A DNA stretch of 64,000 bases from Candidatus Omnitrophota bacterium (GCA_016867115.1 VGKG01000003.1:673-64672); one strand, 5' to 3'. Positions 21,731-39,945 are shown, numbered from the stretch's first letter. Notes: generated by a model not told the origin, from the sequence alone. Numbers and translations: made by a program.

Positions 21731-21909
21731 GTTTTAGAGTTTTGCTGGAGCGTGCATTAGAAAATTTTTGGCCACTCTATGACTTCAGTCTGCAAGGAAT
21801 TACGGTGAACGAAAGGCGGTAAGCTCACGTTAGCATCCAGCCCGAAAGTGAGCCGTAAACCGCAGCAGACGGCAAAAATTTTCAGCACGCGGAAGCAAAA
21901 CGCTAAAAC
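21731..21909 (+). mobile_element. MITE-like 180-bp element with 15-bp terminal inverted repeats, copy 1
   Basis: Termini GTTTTAGAGTTTTGC ... GCAAAACGCTAAAAC (reverse complements, 1 mismatch). Internal hairpin GCTCAC...GTGAGC. About 90% identical to the reverse complement of 39755-39945. Confidence 0.5.
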
Positions 21910-21943
21910 GATAGTTTGATGCATAATAAAAAGGAGAGAAGAA

Positions 21944-22693
21944 ATGCAGATGCAGAAGGATGTACATTTGACGGGAAAGGACCTGACCCAGATGGTGCAG
22001 TTGAGGCCCCAGGATGTGGGAGCTTATGCGATCGTGCCCGGGCCGCGCGACCGGCTGGATGTCTTGATTAAAAGAATCGAGAGCCCGGTAAAGAACTTTT
22101 CTTTTATGGAATACACCATGTATACCGGGACTTTCCAGGGAATAAAGGTCACCGGAATGAACGGCGGAAGATTCTCTACCGACACCTCCATTACTACCGA
22201 AGTGATGTGCAATGCCGGGATCAAGAATATCATCCGTATCGGCACCTGCGGGGCCTTGGATGAAAAGATGAAGGTCGGAGACCTCGTAGTAGTGGATAAG
22301 GTCCTCCGCGGCGACGGCGTGACTCCCTATTACGTAGATAAGGATTTCGTGACGACTGCGGATAAGCAGATCACGGATACTTTATGCGAGGTTTCCAAGG
22401 CCATGGGACTCTCTGTCTTGCGGGGCACAGTCTGGACTACGGATGCGCTTTTACGCGAGACGCGCGAGATCGTCGAGGCAAAGAGAAAAGAAGGCGCCAT
22501 TGCCGTGGATATGGTCTCCTCAACCCTGCTGACCCTGGCTCAGCTTTATCAGGTCAAGGCTGGATCGATCCTGGCGGTAAGCGACAATGTCATCACCGGA
22601 GAGATGGGTTTTATGAACCCGCTCTATTACATGGCAGAGACTAACCTGATCAATATTGCCCTTGAGACAGTGAAGAAACTGGAAGGAAAATGA
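21944..22693 (+). CDS. PNP/UDP-family (PNP-I) nucleoside phosphorylase
   Basis: IRIGTCGAL...VGDLVV core resembles DeoD/Udp-type phosphorylases. 249 aa. Confidence 0.7.
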   Translation: MQMQKDVHLTGKDLTQMVQLRPQDVGAYAIVPGPRDRLDVLIKRIESPVKNFSFMEYTMYTGTFQGIKVTGMNGGRFSTDTSITTEVMCNAGIKNIIRIGTCGALDEKMKVGDLVVVDKVLRGDGVTPYYVDKDFVTTADKQITDTLCEVSKAMGLSVLRGTVWTTDALLRETREIVEAKRKEGAIAVDMVSSTLLTLAQLYQVKAGSILAVSDNVITGEMGFMNPLYYMAETNLINIALETVKKLEGK

Positions 22694-23613
22694 AATACTC
22701 GCCCCTATTCTGGCCCATTGAGTTAAAGGGTAACGCTATTTGCATCCTGGATGAGACCAAATTGCCGCAGAGTCTTACCTATATAAAGGCGATTAATTAC
22801 CGGCAGGCCTGTAAGGCGATTAAAGAGATGAAGACGCGCGCCGTAGGCCAGGTCTTATTGGTAATGTACACCTTCCTTTTGGAGAGCCGCAAGAGAAATA
22901 CTCCTTTAAGCAAGGTGGCTGAGGCGATTAACGCTACCCGGCCGACCCTCTCTTTCAAATTCCTGACTGATATGGTCCTGGGATGGGGGAAGAGCGGTGC
23001 GCCGCTTGAAGATTCTATCAAAGGATTTTTAGGTGCGCTTAAAGAGGCGCGCATCCGTCAGGCGAAAGAGGCAAGCCATCTGCTGGAAGACGGCGATGCG
23101 GTCCTGACGCACTGCAATGTGAGCGGCCTTCTGCCCCTGATCGCAGAGTTCTGCAGACGCGATAAAAAGCGCATCAGCTTCTTTGTGACCGAAACCCGGC
23201 CGTATTTGCAGGGAACGCGGCTGACTGCGTGGGAGCTTAACCGGGCAAAGATAAATAACACTATCATCGCGGATAACATGGTGGCGCAGGTCATGTTTGA
23301 GAGAAAAATCAAGAAGGTCATTGTCGGAGCGGATAATCTGGCGCAGAACGGCGATATCGCTAATAAGATCGGCACCTATCAGATCGCCCTGCTGGCCAGG
23401 GATTTTAACATCCCGTTTTTTGTATTATGCCCTCCGCCGTCCGGCGCAGAGACAGGCTATGATATAGAGATCGAGGTCAGGCCTCCGAAAGAATTACTGG
23501 AGTTTCGCGGCAGGAGCCTTGCGCCAACAGGGGCAAAGGCATATTATCCGGCATTTGATATTACGCCTCATGAATTGATCACCAGGCATATTAACCTCAA
23601 TATTGTGCGATGA
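22690..23613 (+). CDS. eIF-2B alpha/beta/delta-family sugar-phosphate isomerase (methylthioribose-1-phosphate / ribose-1,5-bisphosphate isomerase-like)
   Basis: IF-2B family architecture with a Rossmann-like C-terminal half (VIVGADNLAQNGDIANKIGTYQIALLAR). Confidence 0.7.
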   Translation: MKYSPLFWPIELKGNAICILDETKLPQSLTYIKAINYRQACKAIKEMKTRAVGQVLLVMYTFLLESRKRNTPLSKVAEAINATRPTLSFKFLTDMVLGWGKSGAPLEDSIKGFLGALKEARIRQAKEASHLLEDGDAVLTHCNVSGLLPLIAEFCRRDKKRISFFVTETRPYLQGTRLTAWELNRAKINNTIIADNMVAQVMFERKIKKVIVGADNLAQNGDIANKIGTYQIALLARDFNIPFFVLCPPPSGAETGYDIEIEVRPPKELLEFRGRSLAPTGAKAYYPAFDITPHELITRHINLNIVR

Positions 23614-24605
23614 ATGAGCAGGAATTAAGAGAGCAGATCATCGGAGTAGGCAGAAGGCTTTATGATGCGGGCCTGGCAGTGGCTAAATCCGGAAATATCA
23701 GCTGCCGCCTGGATAAAGAGATTATCCTGATCACCACTACCGGCACTTTCTTAGGCGACCTAAAGGAAGATGATATTGTCAGATTTAATTTATCCACTTC
23801 TAAGCCTGAGGGAAGCAAAAGCCCCAGTTCAGAGCTTCCTCTGCACAGCCTGGTCTATAAAAACTTTCCTGCAAAAAACGTGATCCACGCTCATCCGCCG
23901 CTGGTCAATGCCTATTTTGCGGTGAATAATAGCTTAGAAGCGCTTACCTTTGAGACCAAGTTCTACCTGGGCGATATTCCGGTAGTGGCGCAGGATACTC
24001 CGACAGTGACTGATCCGGAAGCAGTGATCGCAGCCCTCAAGACGAACAACCTTGTTGTGCTGAAAAACCACGGCATAGTGGCGATCAGCGATAAATTTGA
24101 AGACGGGTTGGCCCTGATCGAGGCCCTGGAAGAGGCAGTCAGGACCGCAGCAGTAGCCAGGCTTTTTAAAAAGGAACCAAAAGATACGCTGGACTCGGCC
24201 TTAAAAGAGACTTTGACCAGGAATGATACTGCATATCCTATGTTTTCGCGCGAGCACATCCAAGCGATCGTGGAGCGGGTAAACAAGGATGATTTTGTAG
24301 GGCAAAAGGGCAAAGAGCTGGATCTGACTCTGCGCCTTGCGATAAAGCTCGACGGCACAGACGAAGGCTTCACCTTTAACTTTGAAAAGGGCAGGATCAC
24401 CAGGCTTGATTCCGGAGTTGATGCGCCTTTTATTGTCTCAGGGCCCCGGGATGTCTGGGAGCAGGTATTCCTGGGTAAAGTTGACTCATTTGTCGCGGTT
24501 ACTCAGGGAAAGATGAAGTTAGTGGGTCAACTCGGACAACTCTCCAAATGGTATGTGCCTTTTACCCGGGTATTCGAACATTTTAAACAGGTGAAATTCA
24601 AATGA
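23610..24605 (+). CDS. class II aldolase/adducin-domain protein fused to a C-terminal SCP2-like domain
   Basis: N-terminal GNISCR...HAHPP...NHGIVA motifs of the fuculose-P aldolase/MtnB fold, then about 110 aa of SCP2-like sequence (GKELDLTLRLAIKLDGTDEGFTFNF...). Confidence 0.7.
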   Translation: MNEQELREQIIGVGRRLYDAGLAVAKSGNISCRLDKEIILITTTGTFLGDLKEDDIVRFNLSTSKPEGSKSPSSELPLHSLVYKNFPAKNVIHAHPPLVNAYFAVNNSLEALTFETKFYLGDIPVVAQDTPTVTDPEAVIAALKTNNLVVLKNHGIVAISDKFEDGLALIEALEEAVRTAAVARLFKKEPKDTLDSALKETLTRNDTAYPMFSREHIQAIVERVNKDDFVGQKGKELDLTLRLAIKLDGTDEGFTFNFEKGRITRLDSGVDAPFIVSGPRDVWEQVFLGKVDSFVAVTQGKMKLVGQLGQLSKWYVPFTRVFEHFKQVKFK

Positions 24606-26092
24606 CCGCCAGGATTCTGATTAACGGAGATCTGGTTGAGACGGGCCTAAAGCAGGCAGTGATCAATCCCTCTACGGGCGGACCGATCACTGAGGTCTGT
24701 GTTGCTCAGGCCAGAGAGATAGAGATGGCTTTAGCTTCAGCGCGGCAAGCTTTTGACAAAGGCCCCTGGCCGGGACTTAGCCTCAAAGAGCGCAAAACCT
24801 GCCTTTTAAAGATCGCTCAGGGGATCTTAGAGAAAGCCGGAGAACTCGCAGATTTAGAGACCCTGAATACCGGAAAGCCGATCAAGGAATCCACCTTTAT
24901 GGATATTCCTTCAAGCGCAGAGACTTTCAAACATTTTGCCGGACATCTGGAAGAATACCTTGAAGAAGAGACGCTCAATATCCAGTCTCAGGTCTCAACT
25001 GCCAAGAGCCGGCTCGTGCGCGAGCCAAGGGGTGTAGTAGTCCTGATCGTGCCCTGGAATTATCCTTTATTGATCGCTTCCTGGAAGATGGCTCAAGCCC
25101 TGGCTGCGGGGAATACGGTGATCCTGAAGCCTTCCAGCCTCACTCCTTTGACGGCCCTGGAATTAGGAAAGATCATACTGGATGCCGGAATACCCGCGGG
25201 AGTAGTAAATATCCTTAACGGAAGCGGAGAAGTCCTGGGTGAAAAACTCTGTACAGACTCCCGAGTGGATATGGTCTCCTTTACCGGAAGTAACGAAGTG
25301 GGAAAGAAGATCATCAGCTACTGCGCCGCTTCCGCCAAAAAACTGGTCATGGAACTGGGGGGAAAATCCGCCGGGATCGTTTTGGAGGATGCGGACCTGG
25401 AATCAGCGGTGAACGGCTCGCTCTGTTCCATATTCTTAAACCAGGGTCAGATGTGCACTGCCATGTCGCGCATCTTTGTGCAAGAGGGGATCTTCGATAA
25501 GTTTGTCGCTGATTTTACTGATAAAGCCAAGCGCCTTAAGCTCGGCGAGGGTTCGGACTTTCAGACCCAGATGGGCCCGTTGATCTCTGAGGCACAGCGT
25601 AAACGCGTTTTATCCTATGTGGAGAAGGCTAAGAAAGACGGCGCAAAACTGCTCTGCGGCGGAAAGGTCCCGGATGAGGCAGGCCTTAAAAAGGGATTCT
25701 TCTTTGAGCCCGCTGTTTTTACGGAGATCAAACCACAGGCAGTTATTTTCAGGGAGGAGATCTTCGGTCCGGTAGCGATCATCAATAAGTTTTTCGGCTT
25801 CGAGGAAGCGGTCGAGCTTGCTAACAGCACGGAGTTTGGCCTGGCTGCCTGCATCTGGACAAAGGACCCGGTTAAGGCGAAGGATCTAGCTGGCCGCCTC
25901 AACGCCGGTACGGTCTGGGTGAATACTTACGGCATGTTTTTTAACGAACTTCCCTACGGCGGCTTTAAGCAGAGCGGTTTTGGCAAGGAGCTGGGCAGGG
26001 AGGGGTTCCTGGAATACACGCGCCTGAAGAATGTTTTAGAAGATGCCTCGGGCGAGGCCAGGCCAATCGTCAATTACTGGTACGGATTTTAA
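24602..26092 (+). CDS. NAD(P)-dependent aldehyde dehydrogenase
   Basis: ELGGKS and QGQMCTA catalytic motifs. 496 aa. Confidence 0.9.
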   Translation: MTARILINGDLVETGLKQAVINPSTGGPITEVCVAQAREIEMALASARQAFDKGPWPGLSLKERKTCLLKIAQGILEKAGELADLETLNTGKPIKESTFMDIPSSAETFKHFAGHLEEYLEEETLNIQSQVSTAKSRLVREPRGVVVLIVPWNYPLLIASWKMAQALAAGNTVILKPSSLTPLTALELGKIILDAGIPAGVVNILNGSGEVLGEKLCTDSRVDMVSFTGSNEVGKKIISYCAASAKKLVMELGGKSAGIVLEDADLESAVNGSLCSIFLNQGQMCTAMSRIFVQEGIFDKFVADFTDKAKRLKLGEGSDFQTQMGPLISEAQRKRVLSYVEKAKKDGAKLLCGGKVPDEAGLKKGFFFEPAVFTEIKPQAVIFREEIFGPVAIINKFFGFEEAVELANSTEFGLAACIWTKDPVKAKDLAGRLNAGTVWVNTYGMFFNELPYGGFKQSGFGKELGREGFLEYTRLKNVLEDASGEARPIVNYWYGF

Positions 26093-26105
26093 GTGAGGAG
26101 AGAGC

Positions 26106-27602
26106 ATGGACCTGATCAAACTCTTGGCAGAAGACGCGTATAGACTAAAGGATAAGCCGGCAGTCATTTTCCGGGACCAGCCGATCACCTTCGGCCGGTT
26201 AAGGGAGACGAGTTTCCGCCTGGCAGACAGCCTAAGGACCCTGGGGATAAAAAAGGGCGACAAGGTAGGGATATATCTGCCGAATTGCCCGGAATACATC
26301 TGCAGTTATTTAGCTATCTGGTATCTGGGCGCAACTGCCGTGCCCCTGGATTATATGCTCACTACCGAAGAGCTGGTCTCCTGCCTCTCTCACTCCGAGG
26401 CAAAGTGCCTGATCGCCAGGAATAAGCCCAATATTTCCTTTTCGCAGATCAAAGAAAGGTGTGTGGTCTTAAATGAGATCATTAGCTGCCAGGAAAAAAC
26501 AGACCTGACCCTTTGGTTTGAAGACCTGGTGACAAAGGGCAGGGATAATCCCGAACGCGACTACATAGAAGATAAGGACCTGGCGATCATCTTTTACACC
26601 TCCGGCACAACCGGAAAGCCTAAAGGCGTCCTTATCAATTATCCTCACCTGGGTGCGCCGCCCATGTCCATGGACTTTTTTGCCGATCTGCGGGAGGACG
26701 ATATCGCTGTCTGCGCCCTCCCCTTTTCTCATTTAGGCGGCCTGATCTATATCCAGAACTGCATCTCCTACGGCATTACCGTAGTATTATTAGAGCGTTT
26801 CCTGCCGCTTGAGTTCTTAAGGAGCATCCAGAAATACCGGGCCACCTGTTTCTGGATCGTGCCTTCCATGTATTATGCGATACTGCAGCTTAAAGAGTTT
26901 GAGGTCTTTGACCTGTCTAGCTTGCGCTGGATGGTGACCTTCGGAGCCTCCAGTTCTCCCGACGCGCTGCGCAGGTTCCATAAGTATTGCCCCAATGCCC
27001 ACCTCCTGAACGGCTGGGGCCTTACCGAGACCAATGCACCGACGACAGTCCTGCCGATAGGTTCAGGTAAAATAGAAAGCGTAGGTAAACCCGCTCCCTG
27101 GATCGAAGTAAAGATCTTTGACGACAACGACCGCGAGCTTGCTCCTGGTAATGTGGGCGAGGTGGCGGTGAAGAGCTGGGTGGTCAGCGACGGGTATTAT
27201 AAGGACGCCGAGCTTACCGCAGAGACTATGCGTAACGGCTACTTTTTCACCGGTGACCTGGGAAAATATGATACGGAAGGGAACCTCTATATCGTGGGCA
27301 GGAAAAAGGAGATGATCAAGGTGGGCGGCCAGATCCTCTTTGAGCCGGAGGTTGAGGCAGTGCTTTTTCGCCATCCGGATATTGCCGAAGCGGCGGTCAT
27401 CGGTGTAGCGGATAAATTAAGGGGAGAGGTGCCCAAGGCATTCATAGCCTTGAAAGAAGGAAGCAAGCTCGGCGAAGATGAACTGCGCTCATTTCTGCGC
27501 CAGCATCTGGCCGGCTTCAAGATCCCGCATTATTTTGAGTTTGTCTCAGCGCTTCCCAAGAACCGCACGGGAAAAATCGACAAAGAACAGTTAAGGAAAT
27601 AG
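26106..27602 (+). CDS. AMP-dependent synthetase/ligase (acyl-CoA synthetase family)
   Basis: YTSGTTGKPKGV AMP-binding motif and the C-terminal lysine region. Confidence 0.85.
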   Translation: MDLIKLLAEDAYRLKDKPAVIFRDQPITFGRLRETSFRLADSLRTLGIKKGDKVGIYLPNCPEYICSYLAIWYLGATAVPLDYMLTTEELVSCLSHSEAKCLIARNKPNISFSQIKERCVVLNEIISCQEKTDLTLWFEDLVTKGRDNPERDYIEDKDLAIIFYTSGTTGKPKGVLINYPHLGAPPMSMDFFADLREDDIAVCALPFSHLGGLIYIQNCISYGITVVLLERFLPLEFLRSIQKYRATCFWIVPSMYYAILQLKEFEVFDLSSLRWMVTFGASSSPDALRRFHKYCPNAHLLNGWGLTETNAPTTVLPIGSGKIESVGKPAPWIEVKIFDDNDRELAPGNVGEVAVKSWVVSDGYYKDAELTAETMRNGYFFTGDLGKYDTEGNLYIVGRKKEMIKVGGQILFEPEVEAVLFRHPDIAEAAVIGVADKLRGEVPKAFIALKEGSKLGEDELRSFLRQHLAGFKIPHYFEFVSALPKNRTGKIDKEQLRK

Positions 27603-27610
27603 CTCTAACC

Positions 27611-28642
27611 ATGCAGGATATCAAAGACCTGAATAAGGAGGAACTATCCGCCCTTCTTAAAAAATGGCAAGAGCCGGTGTACCATGCCGGGCAGATCCTT
27701 TCCTGGATCTATAAAAAGGGGGCCGCGGATTTCTCCCGGATGAGCGACTTATCCCTCTCCTTAAGAGAGAAGCTGAAAGAGGGCTTTTATATTCTGGGTT
27801 TAAAGCCTGTTTCTACCCGGAAGTCAGAAGATGATACAGAAAAGCTTCTCTTCGAACTTAAGGATGGCAATCTTATTGAATCGGTGATCATCCCGGCAAA
27901 GGAGAGGACCACGGGCTGCGTCTCAACGCAGGTAGGCTGCAAGTCCGGCTGCCGATTCTGCGCAAGCGGCATGCTTGGCTTTAAAAGAAATCTTAGCGCA
28001 GGAGAGATCCTGGAAGAAGTCCTGCAGATGAATACATATATCTTGCCCGGTAAACTTACCCACATTGTATTTATGGGTATCGGCGAGCCGCTGGATAATT
28101 ACGACAACGTTTTAAAGGCGATCCGGATCATTAATTCCGATTATAGTTTTAATATCGCAAGCCGCCGGATCACCATTTCAAGCTGCGGCATCATCCCGGG
28201 GATCAGGAAGCTGGCAAAGGAGAACCTGCAGGTTGAGCTTTCCATTTCTCTGCACGCAGCCGAAGATAAGACGCGCTCTGAGCTTATGCCGGTGAACAAA
28301 AAATATCCTTTAAAAGAGCTGATGGCATGCCTGCGCGAGTACATCTCGGAGACTGACCGCCAGGTCACCTTTGAATACGTCCTGATCCGGGGGCTGAATG
28401 CGGATTTGCAAAGTGCCGTAAGTTTAAGTAAAATATTAAAGCCGCTTAAGCTTTGTAAGGTGAACCTGCTCCCGGCCAATCCGATCGAAGAGCTGGGAAT
28501 CGAGCCGCCGGGAAAATTAGAGATCCTGTTTTTCCGGGATTATCTGCTGAAGAAAGGGATAAACACGACTTTAAGGATGCCGCGCGGCCGGGATATCGAG
28601 GCTGCCTGCGGACAGTTGAGGTTAAGATATGAGAAGAAATAG
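27611..28642 (+). CDS. rlmN: 23S rRNA (adenine2503-C2)/tRNA methyltransferase RlmN, radical SAM
   Basis: GCKSGCRFC cluster motif and conserved RlmN N-terminal domain. 343 aa. Confidence 0.85.
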   Translation: MQDIKDLNKEELSALLKKWQEPVYHAGQILSWIYKKGAADFSRMSDLSLSLREKLKEGFYILGLKPVSTRKSEDDTEKLLFELKDGNLIESVIIPAKERTTGCVSTQVGCKSGCRFCASGMLGFKRNLSAGEILEEVLQMNTYILPGKLTHIVFMGIGEPLDNYDNVLKAIRIINSDYSFNIASRRITISSCGIIPGIRKLAKENLQVELSISLHAAEDKTRSELMPVNKKYPLKELMACLREYISETDRQVTFEYVLIRGLNADLQSAVSLSKILKPLKLCKVNLLPANPIEELGIEPPGKLEILFFRDYLLKKGINTTLRMPRGRDIEAACGQLRLRYEKK

Positions 28643-29273: not shown

Positions 29274-29291
29274 GCGGACCCAAAGGTCCGC
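29262..29291 (-). terminator. hairpin + T-tract terminator for the minus-strand tRNA-Leu (overlaps the GDSL gene end)
   Basis: GCGGACC-caaa-GGTCCGC stem. On the minus strand it is followed by TTATTTTTTGGGG. Confidence 0.4.
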
Positions 29292-29294
29292 GAT

Positions 29295-29380
29295 TGGTGC
29301 CGGAGAAGGGACTTGAACCCCCATGAGGTTGCCCTCAGTAGCTTTTGAGGCTACCGCGTCTGCCATTTCGCCACTCCGGC
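29295..29380 (-). tRNA. tRNA-Leu (anticodon CAA)
   Basis: Reverse complement GCCGGAG...CTCAAAA...long variable arm...GGTTCAAGTCC...CTCCGGCACCA. 86 nt with encoded CCA. Confidence 0.85.
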
Positions 29381-29599: not shown

Positions 29600-29633
29600 A
29601 ATACAAAATCTGGCGCCACTCCCCTAAAATATA

Positions 29634-30973: not shown

Positions 30974-33372
30974 TCTATGCCTTTAAAGAAATAGAGGAAA
31001 AATGGCAGAAGTCCTGGCAGGCCTCAAGGCTTTTTAACGTAAAAGCCGATCCCAAACGGAAGAAGTATTATCTCCTTGAGATGTTCCCTTATCCGTCGGG
31101 AAAGATCCATATGGGCCATGTGCGTAATTACACGATCGGCGATGTAGCGGCGCGCTTTAAGATGATGCAGGGCTTTGAAATCCTGCACCCCATGGGCTTT
31201 GACGCCTTCGGCCAGCCGGCAGAGAACGCCGCCATTAAGAACAAGACCAAACCTGACATCTGGACCTACAAGTGCATTGACTGGATGCGCGAGGAATTAA
31301 GGAAGATGGGCTTCTCCTACGACTGGGAAAGGGAGGTCTCCACCTGCGACAGCTCTTATTATAGATGGAACCAGTGGATCTTTTTAAAGATGTTTGAGCG
31401 CGGGCTTGCCTATAAAAAGGAATCGAGCGTTAACTGGTGCCCGTCTTGCGAGACCACGCTGGCTAATGAGGAGGTAGTCGATGGCGGCTGCTGGCGCTGC
31501 TCAACCAAGGTGAAGCTGCGCGACCTTGAGCAGTGGTATCTGAAGATTACCGATTATAAAGAGAGGCTCCTGGAAGACCTGGAGGGACTAGGGCATTGGC
31601 CGGAGCGCGTGCTGGCCATGCAGGCGAACTGGATCGGCAAAAGCTCTGGGGTTGAGATCTATTTCCGGCGCAAAGACAATAATGCGATTATCCCGGTCTT
31701 TACTACGAGAGCGGATACGATATTCGGCGCGACTTACATCGTGCTTGCTCCGGAGCTTCCTTTAGTAAAAGAGCTCATCAAGGGTAAGCCTCAGGAAAAA
31801 CAGATCCTTGACTTTATCGACAAGGTGACCAAGGAGAGTAAAGTCATCCGCACTGCCTCAGACGTAAAAAAAGAGGGGTATTTTACCGGCGCTTATGCCG
31901 TAAATCCGGTAAACAACGAAGAGGTGCCTATTTGGGTCGCGGATTATGTCTTGATGGAATACGGGACCGGTGCGATCATGGCTGTGCCTACTCATGACCA
32001 AAGGGATTTCCTTTTTGCCGGAGAGCATGGCCTGCCGATGAGGATTGTTATAAGGTCACCAGGTCACCAGGTCACAACGTCACCGGAGAACCTTAGTGAG
32101 GCATATGAAGGACCCGGCATACAGGTCAATTCCGCGCAGTTTGACGGATTAAATAATCAGGAAGCCAAGGTAAAGATCGCCGAATGGATGGAGGCGACCA
32201 AAATCGGCAAGATCAAGACGCACTGGCGCTTGCGCGACTGGCTAATTTCGCGCCAGCGTTTCTGGGGTACGCCCATCCCGATGATTTATTGTAAGGCCTG
32301 CGGCGTGGTTCCTGTGCCGGAAGCGGATCTACCCGTAGAGTTGCCCAAGGATGCGCCTTTTACCGGCGCAGGCGGCAGCCCTCTGGGTAAAGTAAAGGAG
32401 TTTGTAGAAGTAAAATGCCCCAGGTGCGGCAGCCGTGCCAGGCGCGAGACAGATACTATGGCCACCTTCTTTGACTCGTCATGGTATTTCTTAAGGTTCT
32501 GCTCGCCTAAGTCCGATAAGCTTCCCTTTGATAAGGAGGAGGCAGGCTACTGGATGCCGGTGGACCAGTACATCGGCGGTATTGAGCATGCGATCCTGCA
32601 CCTTTTATATTCGCGCTTCTTTACCAAGTTTTTTCAGGACTTGGGGATGGTGGCATTCAAAGAGCCGTTTAAGCGCCTGCTCACGCAGGGCATGGTCCTT
32701 AAAGACGGGGAAGTGATGTCTAAATCCAGGGGCAATATCGTCGACCCTGATTCGATCATCAAGAAATACGGCGCAGATACCCTGCGTCTATTCATTCTCT
32801 TTGCCGCGCCCCCGGAAACGGAGCTGGAGTGGGATGACCGCGGCATAGAGGGCGCATTTAAGTTCTTAAACCGCGTCTGGCGGATACAGGAGAACCTCAT
32901 GCCTGCGGCCAGCCCGGAGGTTGTGCGCGTTCTGCATAAGACGATTAAAAAAGTGACTGAAGATTTCCAGGACTTTAAGTTCAATACTGCTATCGCCAGC
33001 CTCATGGAACTGACCAACGCGATCTATCAATCGGGAGCGGATAAAGAGGTATTTGCGAAACTCATCATCCTGCTTAGCCCGATCGCACCGCATTTTTGCG
33101 AAGAGCTCTGGCAGATCCTGGGAAATAAGGAGAGTATTTTCATGACCAGGTGGCTCGAGCATGAAGAGCGCTTCCTGATCGAAGAGACGGTCGCCGTGGT
33201 CATCCAGGTGAACGGCAAGGTGCGCTCAAAGATCGAGGTGCCTGCTGACATCAGCGAAGATAAGCTTAAAGAGCTGGTGCTGGCCGACGAAAAGACCAGG
33301 GCCTGGCTTAAAGATTCCCCGCCGAAGAGCTTCATCATCGTCCCCAAAAAACTCGTCAACATCGTCATCTAA
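30970..33372 (+). CDS. leuS: leucine--tRNA ligase
   Basis: HMGHVRNY (HIGH) and VMSKSRGN (KMSKS) motifs. 800 aa. Confidence 0.95.
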   Translation: MIYAFKEIEEKWQKSWQASRLFNVKADPKRKKYYLLEMFPYPSGKIHMGHVRNYTIGDVAARFKMMQGFEILHPMGFDAFGQPAENAAIKNKTKPDIWTYKCIDWMREELRKMGFSYDWEREVSTCDSSYYRWNQWIFLKMFERGLAYKKESSVNWCPSCETTLANEEVVDGGCWRCSTKVKLRDLEQWYLKITDYKERLLEDLEGLGHWPERVLAMQANWIGKSSGVEIYFRRKDNNAIIPVFTTRADTIFGATYIVLAPELPLVKELIKGKPQEKQILDFIDKVTKESKVIRTASDVKKEGYFTGAYAVNPVNNEEVPIWVADYVLMEYGTGAIMAVPTHDQRDFLFAGEHGLPMRIVIRSPGHQVTTSPENLSEAYEGPGIQVNSAQFDGLNNQEAKVKIAEWMEATKIGKIKTHWRLRDWLISRQRFWGTPIPMIYCKACGVVPVPEADLPVELPKDAPFTGAGGSPLGKVKEFVEVKCPRCGSRARRETDTMATFFDSSWYFLRFCSPKSDKLPFDKEEAGYWMPVDQYIGGIEHAILHLLYSRFFTKFFQDLGMVAFKEPFKRLLTQGMVLKDGEVMSKSRGNIVDPDSIIKKYGADTLRLFILFAAPPETELEWDDRGIEGAFKFLNRVWRIQENLMPAASPEVVRVLHKTIKKVTEDFQDFKFNTAIASLMELTNAIYQSGADKEVFAKLIILLSPIAPHFCEELWQILGNKESIFMTRWLEHEERFLIEETVAVVIQVNGKVRSKIEVPADISEDKLKELVLADEKTRAWLKDSPPKSFIIVPKKLVNIVI

Positions 33373-33389
33373 AAAATCCGGTTAGATTC

Positions 33390-33430
33390 TGCCTCCTTCT
33401 GTATCAGTTGTATTAGAAGGAGGCATTTTT
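33390..33430 (+). terminator. leuS terminator hairpin whose 3' arm contains the comEA Shine-Dalgarno
   Basis: TGCCTCCTTCT-(14 nt loop)-AGAAGGAGGCA followed by TTTTT, then ATG at 33431. Confidence 0.5.
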
Positions 33431-33760
33431 ATGTTCAGCCTGACCCGGCAGGAGAGGCAGGTGATCCTGTTTCTGATGGCCACGGCCTTATTCGGCACAG
33501 GGATAGATTTTCTGGTGAAGCGTTACTCGCCGGAGAGAAGGATCCCCTCTTTTGGCCAGAACATCGGAAGGATCAACCTGAACACTGCCGGCCCCGAACT
33601 GCTTGAAGAGCTACCCGGCATAGGCCAGAAGCTCGCCTCAAGGATCATCGAATATCGCGATCAGTCGGGCGGGTTCGATTCCGTAGAAGAGTTAAAGCAG
33701 GTCAAGGGGATCACTGTTTATCGTTTTGAGAAGATCAAGGATTCGCTTTGCATAAAATGA
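33431..33760 (+). CDS. comEA: ComEA-family helix-hairpin-helix DNA-binding protein
   Basis: INLNTAGPELLEELPGIGQKLASRIIEYR HhH motif. N-terminal TM segment. Confidence 0.75.
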   Translation: MFSLTRQERQVILFLMATALFGTGIDFLVKRYSPERRIPSFGQNIGRINLNTAGPELLEELPGIGQKLASRIIEYRDQSGGFDSVEELKQVKGITVYRFEKIKDSLCIK

Positions 33761-35094
33761 CGCGGCCGTTGGTAGTTTTAACTATCGCTTTTTGCAGCGG
33801 CATAATCTTTAGCCGTTTATGCCAAGTTCCTTTTTGGGCCATTTTTTTGCCCAATGCCTTTATCCTTGCCCTGATTTTAATCAGCCGCAAGACAATGAGA
33901 GCCCTCTTAATCATCCTCGCCTTTGGCCTGGGGGCAATCTTCCGGGTGAATGCCTATAATCTGGCTGAATCCCATGTATTAAGGTCAAAGCTCAAGTCGC
34001 ATCTTGTAGTAAAGGGCATAGTTGAAGATATTCCGCAGATAAGGGGTAACCGTACGATCTTTCCCCTGAAAGTAGAAGCAATCGAGGCAGGAAATACCGC
34101 CCGCCGATCCTGCGGGACGCTGCGCATTTTCCTGAATGGCAGGCCGGATTTTTCCTACGGTGATGAGCTTATCCTGAAAGGAAGGTTAGAAAAGGCCGCG
34201 GTCATGCGCGTGCGCTCTCTGAGCGATGTTACGAGAGTCAGCAGAAATAAAGGATTCTTTCTGAAGAGGGTTGCGCTTTGGGCCAGGAGAGAGAGCGGCA
34301 TTAGAATGCAACGGTATACTTCGAGCCTCACTTCGGCGGTCCTTTCGGCGATGGTGCTCGGCGAAAAAAGAAACATCCCCTGGTTCGTGAACAACCTGAT
34401 GGTCAGGACCGGGACGGTACATATTCTGGTGGTGAGCGGTTTTAATGTGGGGATCGTAAGCTTTACCGTGCTCCTGATTTTGAAGTTGCTCAGGGTCCGC
34501 AGGGATACGCGCTTTATTATTACGATCAGCTGCCTCATCTTTTATTGCCTGCTTACCGGAGCCTCCACCCCGGTGGTACGGGCCACGATAATGGCCGTAT
34601 TTTTTCTTTCTGGATACCTGATCAGGAGAGAGCCGGATATCTATAATTCCTTAAGTATGGCGGCGTTATTTATCCTTGTATTTAATCCGGGCCAGTTGTT
34701 TGATATCGGTTTTCAGCTTTCTTTTGTCAGTGTCCTGGCCATAGTCTGCCTCTACCCAGCCCTTTCTAAACTTATCGCTAAGTATTTTTTTAAAAAGGGC
34801 TGGGTGAAGTTCCTTATAGACAGCCTCCTGATTTCTCTCTCTGCGTGGCTGGGCACCTGCGCCTTTATTGCCTATTACTTCAGGATTTTTTCCCCGGTTA
34901 CGGTGCTGGCTAACCTCTTTGTCGTGCCGCTGGCTACTCTGATCACTTTGTGCGGTTTCAGCCTGGTCCTTATAAGCCTGATATGCCCTGCCCTAGGTTT
35001 TGCCTTCGGCTCCTCAGCCGAAGCCCTGGTTTTCATTCTGTTACGCATTAACGCCTCTCTGGCGGATCTGCCCGGCGCCTGCCTGAAGTTTTAG
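33748..35094 (+). CDS. comEC: ComEC/Rec2-family membrane protein (no C-terminal metallo-beta-lactamase domain)
   Basis: DUF4131-like N-terminus plus a polytopic competence domain (HILVVSGFNVGIV). 448 aa. Confidence 0.7.
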   Translation: MHKMTRPLVVLTIAFCSGIIFSRLCQVPFWAIFLPNAFILALILISRKTMRALLIILAFGLGAIFRVNAYNLAESHVLRSKLKSHLVVKGIVEDIPQIRGNRTIFPLKVEAIEAGNTARRSCGTLRIFLNGRPDFSYGDELILKGRLEKAAVMRVRSLSDVTRVSRNKGFFLKRVALWARRESGIRMQRYTSSLTSAVLSAMVLGEKRNIPWFVNNLMVRTGTVHILVVSGFNVGIVSFTVLLILKLLRVRRDTRFIITISCLIFYCLLTGASTPVVRATIMAVFFLSGYLIRREPDIYNSLSMAALFILVFNPGQLFDIGFQLSFVSVLAIVCLYPALSKLIAKYFFKKGWVKFLIDSLLISLSAWLGTCAFIAYYFRIFSPVTVLANLFVVPLATLITLCGFSLVLISLICPALGFAFGSSAEALVFILLRINASLADLPGACLKF

Positions 35095-35145
35095 GGCTAA
35101 GGGCAGGATTGACAAACCCGTATATCTGTGTTAAATTAACCTATT

Positions 35146-36144
35146 ATGTTTAAGCGTTTAATCCTGATCAGCGTAATCCTTTTTGGCCTGGCCGCAGGGC
35201 CGCTTCATGCCTACTGGATCTGGACGCCCAAGACCGGAAAGTGGGTAAACCCTAAGACCCTGCCCAAGCCCACGCCTAAAGAGCAGTTTGAATACGCGAT
35301 GAGCTTCTATAATATCAAGAAGTTTAAAGAGGCGCGGATCGAGTTTAAGAAGCTCCTGAAGGCCTACCCTAAATCCTTTGAGGCCTCCGAAAGCCAGTAT
35401 TACCTGGGCCGGGTTGAGGAAGAGCAGGGCAATATCTATGAAGCCTACCTTGCCTACCAGATGCTCATCGATAAGTACCCTTTTTCCGAGCGGATCCAGG
35501 AAGTCAATGAGCGCGAATACAAGATCGCCGAGCGCTTTATGGCCGGCGAAAAACGCAAGGCCATGGGCGTTGCCCTTCCGGTAGAAAACCCGGCGATAGA
35601 GATCTTTACCAGGGTGGTGGAGAACTCCACCTACGGGCCGCTGGCGCCGAAAGCGCAGTATAAACTGGGGCTCCTCTTAAAGAGCCTGATGCGTTATTAC
35701 GAGGCAGAAGAGGCCTTCAATAAGCTGCTTGCCAATTATCCGGACAGCGAATGGGCGGAGGCGGCGAAGTTCCAGCTGGCGGAGAGCCGCGCGGCGGAGA
35801 GCCGCGGGCCCGAGTATGACCAGGGCGCGACCACGGAGGCGAAGCAGAAATTTGAGGACTTCATCAAGAGCCACCCGGACGCAGCACTCTCCCGCGAGGC
35901 ACAGAAGAATATCCAGCAGCTGCGGGTGAAAGAGGCGGCCAGCAATTATAATATCGGCCGTTTTTACGAGAAGCAGAAGGCTTATGAGGCGGCAAAGATC
36001 TATTACGATGAAGTGCTCAACAGCCTTCCGGACAGCGATTGGGCAAAGAAGGCCTCGGATAGGCTTGAGATAATCGAGAAGTTAACGGAGAAGAAAAATG
36101 TTGTGCCTAAGGGGAAGAAGAAAAAGCTTTTCTTTGGTTCTTAG
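35146..36144 (+). CDS. TPR-repeat protein, BamD/YfiO-like
   Basis: Signal peptide and multiple TPR-like repeats (YYLGRV..., AKFQLAESRA...). No lipobox Cys. Confidence 0.5.
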   Translation: MFKRLILISVILFGLAAGPLHAYWIWTPKTGKWVNPKTLPKPTPKEQFEYAMSFYNIKKFKEARIEFKKLLKAYPKSFEASESQYYLGRVEEEQGNIYEAYLAYQMLIDKYPFSERIQEVNEREYKIAERFMAGEKRKAMGVALPVENPAIEIFTRVVENSTYGPLAPKAQYKLGLLLKSLMRYYEAEEAFNKLLANYPDSEWAEAAKFQLAESRAAESRGPEYDQGATTEAKQKFEDFIKSHPDAALSREAQKNIQQLRVKEAASNYNIGRFYEKQKAYEAAKIYYDEVLNSLPDSDWAKKASDRLEIIEKLTEKKNVVPKGKKKKLFFGS

Positions 36145-36667
36145 CCTGCTTTTGGCGGGCTCTTTGTTCCAGGCCGGCGGCTGCGGCTATACTACGCGTT
36201 CGGCGATCAGCAAGGAATACAGCACTATTTACATCACGCCTTTTGTGAACAAGGTGGATATCACCCAGGAATCCTATTCCCAGAATAAATACCGGATCTA
36301 CCGGCCGACGATAGAGTCGGACATTACCAAGGTGGTGATTGACAGGTTCCTCGTTGACGGCAACCTCAAGCCACTGAGAGAGGATTCCGCGGACCTCATC
36401 CTTAAGGGGGAACTGACGGAATACCGCCGCGACCCATTAAGATACGACGATAACGATAATGTCACCGAATACCGCATAAATCTTGTGGTCAATATTTCCC
36501 TCTACGACCGCAAAAACGATAAACTGCTTTGGGAGGAGAACGGTTTCACCGGAGACTACAGTTATTTCACCACCGGCAACTTAGCCGTCCCCGAAGAAGT
36601 CGCGGTAAATAATGCCCTGGACGACCTGGCGCGCAGGATCGTCGAGCGCGCAGTCGAACAGTGGTAG
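36098..36667 (+). CDS. lptE: LPS-assembly lipoprotein LptE-like
   Basis: Lipoprotein signal ...LFQAGGCGYTTRS (compare the LptE GCGYxLRG motif). About 190 aa. Conserved leuS-lptE-holA neighbourhood. Confidence 0.55.
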   Translation: MLCLRGRRKSFSLVLSLLLAGSLFQAGGCGYTTRSAISKEYSTIYITPFVNKVDITQESYSQNKYRIYRPTIESDITKVVIDRFLVDGNLKPLREDSADLILKGELTEYRRDPLRYDDNDNVTEYRINLVVNISLYDRKNDKLLWEENGFTGDYSYFTTGNLAVPEEVAVNNALDDLARRIVERAVEQW

Positions 36668-36671
36668 GCAT

Positions 36672-37358
36672 ATGGTCTATCTGTTTGTCGGAAGCGACCC
36701 ACCCGCCAAAGACGCCCAGCTGAAAAAGATCAGGCTGCAGGCCCTGGATCAGCACACCGAGCAGTTCAATCTGGATGTATTGTACGCAAGGGACACCTCT
36801 CTTAAAGAGCTGCAGGAGAAGCTGTTTTATCTTCCGGTAAAAAGCCTGAAGCGCGTAGTGGTGGTAAGGGGCGCAGAGGACCTGAAGGAAGAATCGAGGG
36901 AATACCTTGCGCAATACGTAAAAACTCCCCCTAAACAGACTATTTTGGTGCTGGATATCGATACCCGTCAGCAGAAAGGCGCGTTCGGGAAAAACGACAG
37001 ACTGGAGTCTTTTATCCGCCGGATATCCGGATACGCCAAGACTATCCGTTTCCAGGAAGACCCAAGGCCCGATACTTTCAGCCTCGGCAGGCAGATAAAC
37101 CTGAGGCGGCCTGACGCGGCCTTAAAGATCCTGCGTGAGCTGACGAGATTCAATGACGAAAGAAAGCTGGCGCCTCTGATCCTGGGGGTCCTGAGGGCTA
37201 ACTTCGAGAGGGAGGTCGCAGAACCGCTTGAGTTAAGAAGGAGGCTCAAGCTCCTTTTGGCCTGCGACCTGGAAATAAAAACGGGCAAACTTAAAGCCTC
37301 GTTTGCCCTGGAAAAACTGATCGTCGCTTTATGCGGCCTTAGAAAGGCGCTTCATTAA
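36672..37358 (+). CDS. holA: DNA polymerase III delta subunit
   Basis: MVYLFVGSD N-terminus typical of HolA. Position after lptE matches E. coli synteny. Start chosen at an internal ATG of the longer ORF. Confidence 0.65.
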   Translation: MVYLFVGSDPPAKDAQLKKIRLQALDQHTEQFNLDVLYARDTSLKELQEKLFYLPVKSLKRVVVVRGAEDLKEESREYLAQYVKTPPKQTILVLDIDTRQQKGAFGKNDRLESFIRRISGYAKTIRFQEDPRPDTFSLGRQINLRRPDAALKILRELTRFNDERKLAPLILGVLRANFEREVAEPLELRRRLKLLLACDLEIKTGKLKASFALEKLIVALCGLRKALH

Positions 37359-37592
37359 GCGCGATTTTCTGCGGTTTGCGGTGGCGGGATGGATGATATT
37401 CTTCTTGGCTGCCTTGTCCAGCTGGGAGAATACCTTAGCCAGCATGGCCTTGGCTTCGGCGGCATTCTTCGCCGAGACAAGCGAGAGGAACTTCTTGATC
37501 GTTTTTTTCAGCTGTTGTTTAATTTTGAGGTTACGCAGGTGTTTTTTTCTGTCCGCGCGGTTTTTCTTCAATGAGGTTTTTCTTCTCGGCAT
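37329..37592 (-). CDS. rpsT: 30S ribosomal protein S20
   Basis: MPRRKTSLKKNRADRKKHLRNLKIKQQLKKTIKKF... Confidence 0.9.
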   Translation of the reverse strand: MPRRKTSLKKNRADRKKHLRNLKIKQQLKKTIKKFLSLVSAKNAAEAKAMLAKVFSQLDKAAKKNIIHPATANRRKSRLMKRLSKAA

Positions 37593-37669
37593 TTTTGTTC
37601 CTTTCGTGAGGCCGGATCCGGCCTTTAATAGTGAATAACAGTAGCTAAAGATAGCATAATTAGCCGGCT

Positions 37670-39214
37670 ATGTCAACAAACAAATCCGTCGCCCGCTGGG
37701 CAAGCACCATCGCCTTCGCCACCTTTTGTTCCCGGCTGCTGGGTTTTGTGCGCGATATCGTCATCGCCCGGCTTTTCGGCATCCGGGAGATCGCCCAGGC
37801 CTTTGTCGTCGCCTTCAGGATCCCGAACCTCTTCCGGGATTTTGTCGGAGAAGGCGCCGCCAACGCCAGCCTGGTGCCTGTCTTTAGCGAATATAGCCTA
37901 AAACAGGACAAAGAGGAGTTCTGGCGCCTGGCTAATGTGGTGTTGAACCTGCTGCTGGTCGTCCTTTCCGCAATCGTATTATTGGGCATAATTTTTTCTC
38001 CCCTGATCATCCGCCTGATCGCCCCCGGGTTCATCGCTTCTCCGGAGAAGTTCCTGGCCACGGTTAAGTTAAACCGGATTATTTTCCCTTATCTTTTATT
38101 GATCTGCCTGGCTGCCTATTCCACGGGGATCCTGAATTCCCTGAAGCATTTCAGTATCCCGGCGTTTGCGCCCTGTCTTTTGAATATTTCCATTATTATC
38201 TGCGCCCTCGCCTTTGGCGAGGGGATCGTAGGCCTGGCCTCGGGAGTCCTGATCGGCGGGATCCTGCAGCTTGCGATACAGATCCCCGTACTTTACAAAA
38301 AAGGGTTCCGGCTAAACCCTGCCGCAGGTTTCCGTCATCCCGAAGTAAAGACTATCGGTAGGCTGATGCTGCCGCGCATCGCCAGCTCCAGCATTTACCA
38401 GCTGAATAATTTTGTGGATTCCATCTTCGGGTCTCTGGTCTGGTTTGTGGGAGAGGGGGGTGTGGCGGTCCTTTATTTCGCCTACCGACTGATCCAATTT
38501 CCCCTCGGGATCTTCAGTAACGCCCTTTCCCAGGCGCTCCTGCCTACATTTTCCACCCAATCCCTGGAGCCGGACAGAGAGGGCCTGAAGAGCACGCTGG
38601 CCTGGGCCCTGCGCGCAGTCTCCTTCGTCATCGTGCCCGCGCAGGCCGCCTTTATCTTTCTGGCGAAACCGGTGGTCCTGGTGCTTTTCGGCGGCGGCAG
38701 ATTCGATTCAACCGCCGTAGATCTTACTGCCTCATGCCTCATCTTTTACAGTATCGGTCTGTCTGCCTATGGGGCAAATAAAATCTTACAGTCCTGTTTC
38801 TTTGGCCTGAAGGACACCCTCACGCCGGCAAAGATCTCAGGTTTGGCCCTCGGGATGAACATCGCGTTGAACTGCCTGCTTATGTTTCCCCTCAAGATCG
38901 CAGGCATAGCCCTGGCCACCTCTATTTCCGGGGTAGTATCATTCTTGGTACTTTTTAATATCCTCCGGCGCAAGATCGGTGATTTCCGGGTGGCAGAGGT
39001 CGTATTTTCTTTCGTACGCATAGCCCTGGCCAGCCTTTGCATGGGTCTGGTGGCTTATCTTTGTTTTTACAAGGGCCATTCCTTAAAGTTGAATAATTAC
39101 CTGAATCTGGGGCTTACGGTGTTTCTCAGCCTGTTTTCATATGCGGTTTTCTGCCTGCTTTTGGGGGTCAGAGAGATGCGCGAGCTCTGGCAGTGGGTAA
39201 GCCATAAAAAGTAA
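37670..39214 (+). CDS. murJ: lipid II flippase MurJ (MviN family)
   Basis: 514 aa polytopic protein with the N-terminal MviN pattern (FCSRLLGFVRDIVIARLFG..., RIPNLFRDF). Confidence 0.85.
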   Translation: MSTNKSVARWASTIAFATFCSRLLGFVRDIVIARLFGIREIAQAFVVAFRIPNLFRDFVGEGAANASLVPVFSEYSLKQDKEEFWRLANVVLNLLLVVLSAIVLLGIIFSPLIIRLIAPGFIASPEKFLATVKLNRIIFPYLLLICLAAYSTGILNSLKHFSIPAFAPCLLNISIIICALAFGEGIVGLASGVLIGGILQLAIQIPVLYKKGFRLNPAAGFRHPEVKTIGRLMLPRIASSSIYQLNNFVDSIFGSLVWFVGEGGVAVLYFAYRLIQFPLGIFSNALSQALLPTFSTQSLEPDREGLKSTLAWALRAVSFVIVPAQAAFIFLAKPVVLVLFGGGRFDSTAVDLTASCLIFYSIGLSAYGANKILQSCFFGLKDTLTPAKISGLALGMNIALNCLLMFPLKIAGIALATSISGVVSFLVLFNILRRKIGDFRVAEVVFSFVRIALASLCMGLVAYLCFYKGHSLKLNNYLNLGLTVFLSLFSYAVFCLLLGVREMRELWQWVSHKK

Positions 39215-39224
39215 GGAGGTCAAT

Positions 39225-39755
39225 ATGACGCAGACAAGATCGCGTGGGATCGCTATTTTTGCCTGGGCTTTTATCGCGGTGAACGCATTCGGGCTATTGA
39301 ATATCCGCGGCTACTATATTACTTATTCTTTCCTGCCCCGCAGCGCCTTGATCGCGGTCCTGCTTTATGCCATCGCCTTTTTTGCCTGCGGTATTATTGC
39401 CGCGGTGAATGTGCTGCGGTTAAAGGAGTGGGCCAGGAGATTAATGCTGGTTATGGCTCTCCTGGGCATCGTGGATAATATCATCTTTGTGCCCCTGACC
39501 CACAGGTCCATACAGAATGTTTCGGCCGATCAGAAACTGATCGAGACCCTGAATGAGCAGTATGATAAGCTGCCGCAGGATTACCGCCGGAAGCTGGCGA
39601 TGTCTAAGGAGGCCTATGTGGACTCCATGCTCAAGACGGCTGTATTCGTTGCCCACCTGATCACCGGGATCATTGAGGTGGGCTTTACGATCATCTTCGG
39701 CTTTTTGATGTTCTGGTACTTCTTACGCCGCAAGGTCAGAGAAGAGTTTCATTAG
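39225..39755 (+). CDS. hypothetical membrane protein
   Basis: 176 aa with 4 predicted TM segments. No family recognised. Confidence 0.4.
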   Translation: MTQTRSRGIAIFAWAFIAVNAFGLLNIRGYYITYSFLPRSALIAVLLYAIAFFACGIIAAVNVLRLKEWARRLMLVMALLGIVDNIIFVPLTHRSIQNVSADQKLIETLNEQYDKLPQDYRRKLAMSKEAYVDSMLKTAVFVAHLITGIIEVGFTIIFGFLMFWYFLRRKVREEFH

Positions 39756-39945
39756 TTTTGCTTCCGGGCTTTGTTCGCGTGCGAAAATTTTTGCCGTCTG
39801 CGGCGGTTTACGGCTCACTTTCAGGCTGGATGCTAACGTTAGCTTCCCGCCTCCCGTTCGCCGTAATTCCTTGCAGACTGAAGCTATAGAGGGGCCAAAA
39901 ATTTTCTAATGCACGCTCACAAACCCTCCAGCAAAACTCTTTGAG
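39755..39945 (-). mobile_element. MITE-like element, copy 2 (inverted relative to copy 1)
   Basis: Its reverse complement aligns to 21731-21909 at about 90% identity with two indels of about 10 nt. Fills the intergenic gap between the stop at 39755 and the uvrC start at 39954. Confidence 0.5.

Follow-up and report, generated by a model that had tools for sequence, protein, structure and literature searches.

Two inverted intergenic copies of a rod-forming element in an Omnitrophota genome: candidate genes for a structured small RNA

The locus and the repeat pair

The 64,000-nt stretch of Candidatus Omnitrophota bacterium DNA analyzed here (GCA_016867115.1 VGKG01000003.1:673-64672; hereafter the window) carries two inverted copies of an approximately 180-bp intergenic element, designated Y, that we consider as a candidate structured small RNA (sRNA). 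Copy A (positions 21731-21909, plus strand) lies upstream of, and on the same strand as, a methionine salvage operon encoding PNP, an IF-2B (MtnA-like) protein and a class II aldolase (MtnB-like). Copy B (39755-39945, minus strand) lies between a 176-aa open reading frame (ORF) that has no Pfam match and uvrC, and is antisense to both genes. The 18-kb block between the copies includes leuS, comEA/EC, a bamD-like gene, lptE, holA, rpsT, murJ and the genes for tRNA-Leu and tRNA-Ala. A first-pass annotation of the window had correctly listed leuS, holA, rpsT, murJ and the tRNAs in this block, and had described the two segments as members of a small non-autonomous element family resembling miniature inverted-repeat transposable elements (MITEs), or possibly as a duplicated sRNA. 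It had also taken both copies to fill their intergenic gaps exactly; this holds for copy B, which occupies the whole of its 198-nt gap, but not for copy A, which shares its gap with a second structured element, X (see section "Element X, hairpin Z and promoters").

The inverted pair itself is well founded. A repeat search of the whole window yielded positions 21748-21883 and 39783-39918 as the one outstanding inverted pair (136 nt, ungapped, 93% complementary), with the runners-up spanning only 30-37 nt at 72-73%. Over the full extent of both segments, indels included, the identity is 83-88%, and the longest perfectly identical stretch is 26 nt. Folded as RNA, each segment forms a long, imperfect, end-to-end hairpin, at -69.2 kcal/mol (z -6.5) for the plus strand of copy A and -82.3 kcal/mol (z -6.8) for the minus strand of copy B. 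The opposite strands give folds weaker by 4-5 kcal/mol, and either strand of both copies forms a very stable hairpin (-64 to -82 kcal/mol). Among the local inverted repeats of the window, X and the two Y copies alone stand out.

The 15-bp terminal inverted repeats (TIRs) earlier assigned to both copies correspond to the outer stem of copy A (25-nt terminal arms, 84%), whereas copy B has in common with these arms just the inner 9 nt (GAGTTTTGC/GCAAAAC), beyond which the flanks differ; the GTTTTAG...CTAAAAC at the ends of copy A has no equivalent in copy B. Copy B instead carries a matched additional segment in each arm (GGGUUUGUGA, also given as GGGTTTGTGA, and GAACAAAGCCC) that is absent from copy A; because the two segments are complementary, they extend the stem instead of interrupting it. 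Similarly, the internal GCTCAC...GTGAGC hairpin is intact in copy A alone, as copy B reads GCTAAC; this pairing has no support across the family described below, in which GUGAG is part of a module of tandem G.A pairs.

Homologs, copy number and paralogs

Searches of the window and both copies against Rfam 15 returned nothing for Y at gathering thresholds or at E<=10, the best match being Ocean-V at 13 bits against a threshold of 75; with X and seven related loci included, the matches were tRNAs and noise only. Full-text literature searches and look-ups in Omnitrophota papers yielded no description of such an RNA, nor anything on the non-coding RNAs of the phylum. Homologs were recovered directly from genomes and metagenomes (loci are designated by L and a number). 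An exact 20-mer scan of JGI metagenomes recovered a diverged homolog on a metagenome contig (L007), and a two-anchor pattern scan of GTDB species genomes detected Y in seven metagenome-assembled genomes (MAGs), five of them titled Omnitrophota/Omnitrophica and two titled "uncultured Planctomycetales". Five other pattern matches (L008, L016, and L018-L020) were discarded as chance occurrences, four of them lying within coding DNA and all being rejected by the covariance model.

Covariance models were built from ten members (R1; hand-written structure on a MAFFT alignment) and from fifteen members (R2). Searches with these models added a second copy in L014, two copies in L031, and one each in L030 and L033. 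In total, at least 12 Omnitrophota assemblies besides that of the window carry Y homologs. True members score 60-148 bits on the sense strand and at most 28 bits on the antisense strand. For copy A (complete rod 21731-21909, model core 21743-21897) the scores are 125.5 bits (R1) and 143.2 bits (R2) on the plus strand against 13.5 bits on the minus strand; for copy B (complete rod 39755-39937, minus strand, model core 39770-39923) they are 133.9 bits (R1) and 147.2 bits (R2) on the minus strand against 19.8 bits on the plus strand. The models identify exactly two Y copies in the window and 18 in the 289 kb examined, with no weaker matches; all of these copies lie at loci chosen for Y or at two hot spots, namely the murJ to uvrC and Amidohydro_2 to PNP gaps.

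The presence of two Y copies in one genome is recurrent. In addition to the window, it is seen in DeMMO2_11 (L012 and L013), H51-bin162_1 (L017 and L021), JAZDLG01 (L014), where two direct copies lie on either side of a 222-aa ORF, and L031, where two copies are arranged head-to-head, Y(-)/Y(+), 50 nt apart; CAZPNW01 (L009 and L010) is a possible further case. The two copies are 88% identical over the model region in the window (93% in the ungapped core) and 98% identical in DeMMO2_11, and these near-identical pairs point to recent duplication or gene conversion. By contrast, L017 and L021, from the same genome, are just 57% alike: L021 groups with both copies of L014 (L014a/b) at 76-77% identity, and L017 with L022, L012 and L013 at 67-69%. 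Based on these identities, there are two old Y paralog lineages. Long-lived paralog lineages common to several genomes are expected of genes, not of transposon bursts.

Y occurs in varied gene neighborhoods and on either strand, in the same orientation as its neighbors in about six and in the opposite orientation in about 11 of 17 cases, and no neighboring gene is conserved across the loci examined. This variability of both neighbors and orientation argues against a leader or riboswitch. The flanking intergenic DNA is unalignable between relatives, whereas Y itself aligns. In three lineages Y lies near genes of the methionine cycle: L013 (5183-5326; MtnA and MetRS), L007 (80-258; homocysteine S-methyltransferase) and copy A. 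The orientations are inconsistent, and this proximity may be a coincidence or a remnant of synteny. A riboswitch for methionine salvage was rejected for the same inconsistency, given that Y in L013, L033 and L007 faces the wrong way.

Conserved architecture of Y

The Y rod begins with a closing stem (P1) of 10-25 bp that is different in every genome, followed by a small loop, often GA/GA, and a covarying stem (P2) of 6-8 bp (GCGUGC/GCACGC, GCCCAC/GUGGGC, GCAGAC/GUCUGC or GCCGAC/GUCGGC). A 5' bulge of 4-5 nt (AUUAG) separates P2 from P3, an A/U-rich helix (GAAAUUUUUUG/CAAAAAAUUUC), after which comes a further 5'-side bulge of 4-25 nt (J3/4 in copy A), faced on the 3' strand by just 1-2 unpaired bases. 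The core then comprises P4 (GUCUGC/GCAGAC), a loop AA/GCA, P5 (GG/CC), a loop AA/A, and P6 (UUACGG/CCGUAA). Beyond the core are two tandem G.A pairs (C-GA-GC-GA / GA-GC-GA-G) and a variable apical hairpin. In copy A, the invariant and covarying alignment columns place the 5' half of the core (GUCUGC-AA-GG-AA-UUACGG) at 21788-21805 and the 3' half (CCGUAA-A-CC-GCA-GCAGAC) at 21853-21870, both on the plus strand; in copy B the corresponding halves are at 39878-39861 and 39813-39796 on the minus strand.

The pairing is supported by covariation. Across 15 distinct sequences, 94.9% of modeled cells are standard pairs, compared with 81% for shuffled partners and 32-44% for partners displaced by 1-3 columns. 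Compensatory changes on both sides occur in 25 of the 38 modeled pairs, and none of 500 shuffles reaches any of these measures, a control that overstates significance because the members are related sequences, aligned to fit the model. P4 seemed invariant in the pattern-selected set, and in the wider set it covaries (GUCUGC/GCAGAC, GUGCAC/GUGCAC, GUGUGC/GCACAC and GUCGGC/GCCGAC); thus, the letters that are truly fixed are C-AAGG-NN-UUACG and CGUAAACCG-Y-AG. The termini (P1) differ among members and the internal loops are invariant, which is the opposite of the conservation seen in transposons.

Known motifs did not account for the core. A K-turn was rejected because a 3-nt bulge with G.A/A.G after it is missing from the core; the loop sequences fit neither sarcin-ricin nor UAA/GAN motifs; and mimicry of a sigma-54 promoter (UGGCA-N-UGCA) was rejected because the spacing is one nucleotide short and insertions disrupt the motif in the window, L007 and L014.

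Sense strand and coding potential

In 14 of 16 members, the strand that contains GUCUGCAAGGAAUU gives a more stable fold than its complement; of the other two, one is a tie and one folds worse. The mean difference is 9.8 kcal/mol (Wilcoxon p 0.0008). Within the modeled pairs this strand has 15 G.U against five A.C, and a further 18 cells are G.A, which on the opposite strand would appear as pyrimidine mismatches. The target of such a strand-specific constraint is a single-stranded nucleic acid with one polarity, the simplest candidate being RNA. No ORF is conserved in Y: most members contain stops, and the distance between conserved blocks is not constant modulo 3. A small protein read in the SARNYG...RKPQQTAK frame of L012 and L022 was rejected, as stops or shifts break this frame in most members.

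Element X, hairpin Z and promoters

Based on nhmmer searches, folding and RNAalifold, element X of the window (subtype X1; 21471-21737, minus strand) is a branched rod of approximately 270 nt that adjoins copy A and covers a predicted 82-aa ORF (21479-21727). The reading frame of the X motif varies from genome to genome, which indicates that this ORF is spurious; what has been annotated as an 82-aa "hypothetical protein" is probably not a gene but the structured element X. X1 homologs were detected by nhmmer in L012, L014, L021, L026/27 and L032, and a variant, X2, in L012, L024/25, L033 and L030. In seven of eight members, the more stable fold of X is obtained from the strand antisense to Y (the minus strand in the window), and the X1 consensus (RNAalifold, five sequences) has 63 pairs, 20 of them with compensatory changes. 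On this strand, a tandem-G.A module (UUUUCGAGCGAAUG...CUGAGCGAGAAAA) is common to the closing stem of X and the apical stem of Y. X has no Rfam match (a Transposase-2 match at 19 bits is noise), and a type I toxin mRNA was ruled out for X, as no conserved small ORF is visible in the X sequences.

A head-to-head arrangement of X(-) and Y(+), with 15-50 nt between them, is seen in the window, L012, L021 and L033 (inverted in the last), and the motif upstream of copy A (CTAAAATCGA..CGCTCGAAAA, within 60 nt) recurs upstream of Y in L012 and L021. In L024-L027, X is partnered not by Y but by a shorter hairpin, Z (L026, 11830-11915; L024, ~11790-11985; also L032, 5258-5365, minus strand), which is bounded by UUUUAGCGGGUGGC...GACAGGACCCGCUAAAA and has a tandem-G.A module (GAGCGAG) in its interior; Z appears to be a reduced form of X2. 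Some of the elements are nested: in L012 an X1 stem surrounds an X2 core, and in L030 Y lies inside Z-type termini (UUUUAGCG...CCCGCUAAAA), which the ends of copy A resemble.

A sigma-70-like site in the end of X (TCGAAA-16-TATGAT; 21694-21721, plus strand) is the putative promoter of copy A, from which transcription would start 1-3 nt before the rod. Similar layouts precede Z in L026 (TAGAAA-16-TATAGA) and Y in L030 (TTGAGA-16-AATAAT). No promoter consensus was found upstream of all Y members. Elsewhere in the window, a perfect consensus sigma-70 promoter (TTGACA-17-TATAAT; 9736-9763) lies in a 675-nt gap after an AcrB-like gene, near unannotated small ORFs, which indicates that the organism uses canonical promoters.

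Occupancy of the two loci in relatives

Synteny of both loci was assessed with MurJ and PNP homologs from relatives. The gap from murJ (with or without the 176-aa ORF) to uvrC contains Y(-) in the window; an X-arm fragment but no Y in the 106 nt of L023, the MurJ of which is 84% identical; and X plus Z in L024-L027; in L028/29 the two genes overlap and there is no element. The gap from Amidohydro_2 to PNP contains X followed by Y in the window, an inverted X-Y module in L033, and inverted X plus Z but no Y in L032; in L031 it is 86 nt long and empty, with the Y pair 1.5 kb upstream, and in L030 it contains an X fragment, a 200-aa ORF, Y, and then an HTH-Fic pair. This last pair in L030 (5292-5977) consists of HTH_17 and Fic genes, is toxin-antitoxin-like, and lies between Y and PNP, where the other relatives have structured elements only or nothing. 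Insertion polymorphism is therefore present at orthologous sites, the gaps being filled, empty or occupied by an inverted module.

The signatures expected of transposition were sought at the same sites. Neither copy is flanked by a target-site duplication (TSD), the flanks being AACAA|...|GATAG for copy A and CTCAA|...|TAATG for copy B (read on its own strand), and none of the relatives offers a clean empty site with alignable flanks for TSD comparison, as the flanks cannot be aligned. The family as a whole has no conserved TIRs; a subset has TTTTAGCG/CGCTAAAA. Pfam detected no transposase, integrase, reverse transcriptase (RT) or Cas-like gene among the 58 ORFs of the window, and no transposase, integrase or RT beside the other Y copies. 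A scan of viral contigs for Y gave no matches, and nothing viral or plasmid-like was seen around Y. In about 200 kb of this clade, no Y copies were found outside the two hot spots.

No evidence for inversion of the 18-kb block

The first-pass annotation had proposed the inverted copies as a substrate for recombination-mediated inversion of the intervening block, a suggestion that our analysis does not support. The borders of the block (Amidohydro_2 to PNP, and murJ to uvrC) are arranged as in relatives that have neither or only one of the copies, so the window shows the ancestral orientation. All contigs from independent assemblies of this population carry the reference junctions, with X-Y-PNP in L001-L003 and the 176-aa ORF followed by Y(-) in L004-L006. 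An identity of 26 nt is marginal for RecA-type recombination, and after an inversion approximately 18 kb of co-directional genes would be oriented contrary to the prevailing direction of the genes; inversion might at most occur as a rare event. The inverted arrangement of the copies thus appears to be incidental rather than a working inversion switch. The Logan short-read contigs L001, L003, L004 and L005 start or stop inside Y (model positions 30 and 81-82) because Y is a two-copy repeat in the de Bruijn graph, and this accounts for the breaks in short-read assemblies of this population at both sites.

Interpretation

We posit, with moderate confidence, that the two segments are paralogous genes of an undescribed, Omnitrophota-specific structured sRNA of approximately 170-200 nt that probably binds a protein via its invariant core and is linked in some way to X. 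Of the two alternatives that the first-pass annotation had offered, the sRNA is the one that best fits the covariation, invariant core, strand asymmetry, low copy number and paralogs, whereas the MITE features fail or are weak, apart from the polymorphism of the loci. In this model, Y would be transcribed as an independent sRNA, in the case of copy A from the sigma-70-like promoter in the end of X; the long closing stem would protect the RNA ends; and the invariant internal-loop core would be the site at which a conserved protein or another partner docks, such that Y acts in trans as part of a ribonucleoprotein. The near-identical copies in this genome would have arisen by recent duplication or gene conversion within an old two-copy family, and Y would be functionally linked to X through their head-to-head module. 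Protein binding is our working hypothesis for the function of Y: in an RNA of approximately 180 nt, the combination of an invariant 30-nt internal-loop core, strong covariation and two long-lived paralogs is characteristic of binding to a conserved partner. The Omnitrophota are an uncultivated phylum of bacteria that are mostly ultra-small and possibly predatory or host-dependent, and the R2 model and the coordinates given here provide a concrete basis for metatranscriptome and pull-down work. In being defined by conservation and covariation in the intergenic DNA of uncultivated bacteria, Y is akin to the orphan structured RNA motifs found in metagenomes (Rfam "Gene; sRNA"), although it matches no Rfam 15 family.

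Several observations weigh against this interpretation. Convincing promoters were found for few members (copy A, matching at 9/12 positions, and L030, at 10/12), no comparable promoter was found upstream of copy B or X(-), and intrinsic terminators are seen in some Y members only. The dependence among the aligned sequences weakens the shuffle control, as noted above, and matched changes in the two arms can also come from DNA-level template switching in quasi-palindromes, so that some of the covariation may have arisen independently of selection on RNA. Relatives keep the gene order around both copies, but the contents of the gaps vary, and the combination of variable occupancy with nesting (Y in Z-type termini in L030, X2 in an X1 stem in L012) is typical of mobile palindromic elements.

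These last points are the strength of the view that Y, X and Z are low-copy, non-autonomous mobile hairpins in the broad sense of MITE, REPIN or ERIC elements, moved in trans by an enzyme encoded elsewhere, with a fold that is recognized as single-stranded DNA or merely tolerated, and with the window copies as recent insertions. In addition to the nested or mosaic forms and the polymorphic occupancy of the murJ|uvrC and Amidohydro_2|PNP gaps, this view is favored by the terminal motif TTTTAG(C/A)G...CGCTAAAA that is common to Y copy A, Y of L030 and the Z hairpins, by the 88-98% likeness of Y copies within this genome and DeMMO2_11, and by the assembly breaks within the element. ERIC/IRU and REPIN elements likewise are intergenic imperfect palindromes of 100-200 bp that occur in either orientation, with matched arm changes, internal insertions, nested forms, and presence/absence differences among relatives. 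However, those families number tens to hundreds of copies in each genome, their ends or REP heads are conserved, and ERIC has TA duplications and REPINs a cognate RAYT transposase. Y, by contrast, occurs just once or twice in every genome that allows a judgment, with no copies beyond the two hot spots in about 200 kb of this clade; its termini are its least conserved part (copy B lacks the terminal motif) and its interior is invariant. That the window holds two copies only, without TSDs, is the outcome that the first-pass annotation had itself taken to speak against a MITE. No transposase, integrase or RT is in view in the 64-kb window and the viral-contig scan was empty, while invariant loops, strong strand asymmetry and deep cross-genome paralogs are unexpected of selfish hairpins; we therefore regard mobile hairpins as unlikely, though a serious contender. 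Integron attC sites offer a partial parallel, being imperfect palindromes of ~60-140 nt located after small ORFs of unknown function, with a functional folded strand that is often antisense to the neighboring gene. Y was rejected as an attC site: the R''/R' core sites (RYYYAAC...GTTRRRY) are absent from its ends, there is no cassette array and no integrase in the window, and attC conserves its ends where Y conserves its interior. The fallback that the annotation had offered, a functionless remnant of segmental duplication, is scarcely credible: it would agree with the two copies and missing TSDs of the window, yet the duplicated unit is the rod alone, between unrelated flanks, and the element is conserved, with compensatory changes, in many other genomes.

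A cis-acting structure in operon transcripts or DNA (a processing site, mRNA stabilizer, or insulator/attenuator), as opposed to a separate RNA gene, would explain why every copy lies in a short intergenic gap, mostly between co-directional genes, with copy B filling its gap, as well as the stability of the hairpin on either strand and the position of copy A just upstream of the methionine salvage operon and of L013 and L007 near methionine-cycle genes. We consider it improbable, given that orientation is mixed and yet the constraints are strand-specific, that the invariant 30-nt internal-loop core far exceeds the needs of a stabilizing hairpin, that relatives with the same operons manage without Y, and that L013, L033 and L007 have the wrong orientation for a methionine riboswitch. 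About equally improbable is a special case of the sRNA interpretation, by analogy with 6S RNA (ssrS; RF00013) and 6S-like RNAs, in which Y would be a lineage-specific analog that binds RNA polymerase holoenzyme. Like 6S RNA, Y is a rod of 170-200 nt with paired ends and an interruption in the middle (a 4-25 nt bulge on the 5' strand beside an easily melted A/U helix), it has one or two genes per genome in no fixed neighborhood, and its two old paralogs recall the two 6S paralogs of Firmicutes, 6S-1 and 6S-2. The window and related loci contain no Rfam 6S match, which favors this analogy, but these are short genome pieces, and a canonical 6S gene may lie elsewhere. Furthermore, RF00013 gives no match on either copy, even at E up to 10; Y has a one-sided bulge, with 1-2 unpaired bases on the 3' strand, instead of a two-sided bubble resembling an open promoter; and 6S RNA does not have the three-helix internal-loop core that is the most conserved part of Y.

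In a more novel reading, Y and X would be two undescribed, phylum-wide structured RNAs in a head-to-head module, kept at one per genome together with a solo second Y, and relocating and inverting as a unit; they would either belong to an unknown ribonucleoprotein as its RNA components or constitute a novel type of RNA-centered mobile cassette in Omnitrophota. We advance this reading only tentatively, and consider it rather unlikely as stated.

Other features of the window and related loci

The genes of the window are, by Pfam, ordinary metabolic and housekeeping genes. Its MurJ and PNP match NCBI proteins from Candidatus Omnitrophica MAGs at 100% identity. Of the ORFs of at least 100 aa, 56 of 58 are on the plus strand, with the exceptions of a cation-efflux gene (49740-50657) and an ORF at 63038-63757; also on the minus strand are the S20 gene (87 aa, 37329-37592), tRNA-Leu and Y copy B. 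An 87-nt direct repeat (84% identical; 15654-15740 and 15967-16053) occupies both intercistronic gaps that flank a PP-binding (ACP) gene. Each copy of this repeat is a hairpin of ~60 nt (CGGGACAG...CUGUCCCG; z about -3) that ends in an AGGAGG ribosome-binding site immediately before the next start codon. The orthologous ACP operons in L031 and L033 have gaps of 1-42 nt, without the repeat.

The uvrC gene next to copy B (39954-41186) encodes just 410 aa and is followed by a separate ORF of ~90 aa (41188-41460; DNA_binding_1 in relatives). A short uvrC (391-414 aa) is found in all relatives examined, which identifies this as a feature of the clade and not a frameshift. In L024 and L025 (~1-6715), comEC is reduced to a 216-aa remnant, preceded by a large serine recombinase and approximately 5 kb of small unknown ORFs, an arrangement suggestive of a prophage or integrative element that has inserted into comEC.

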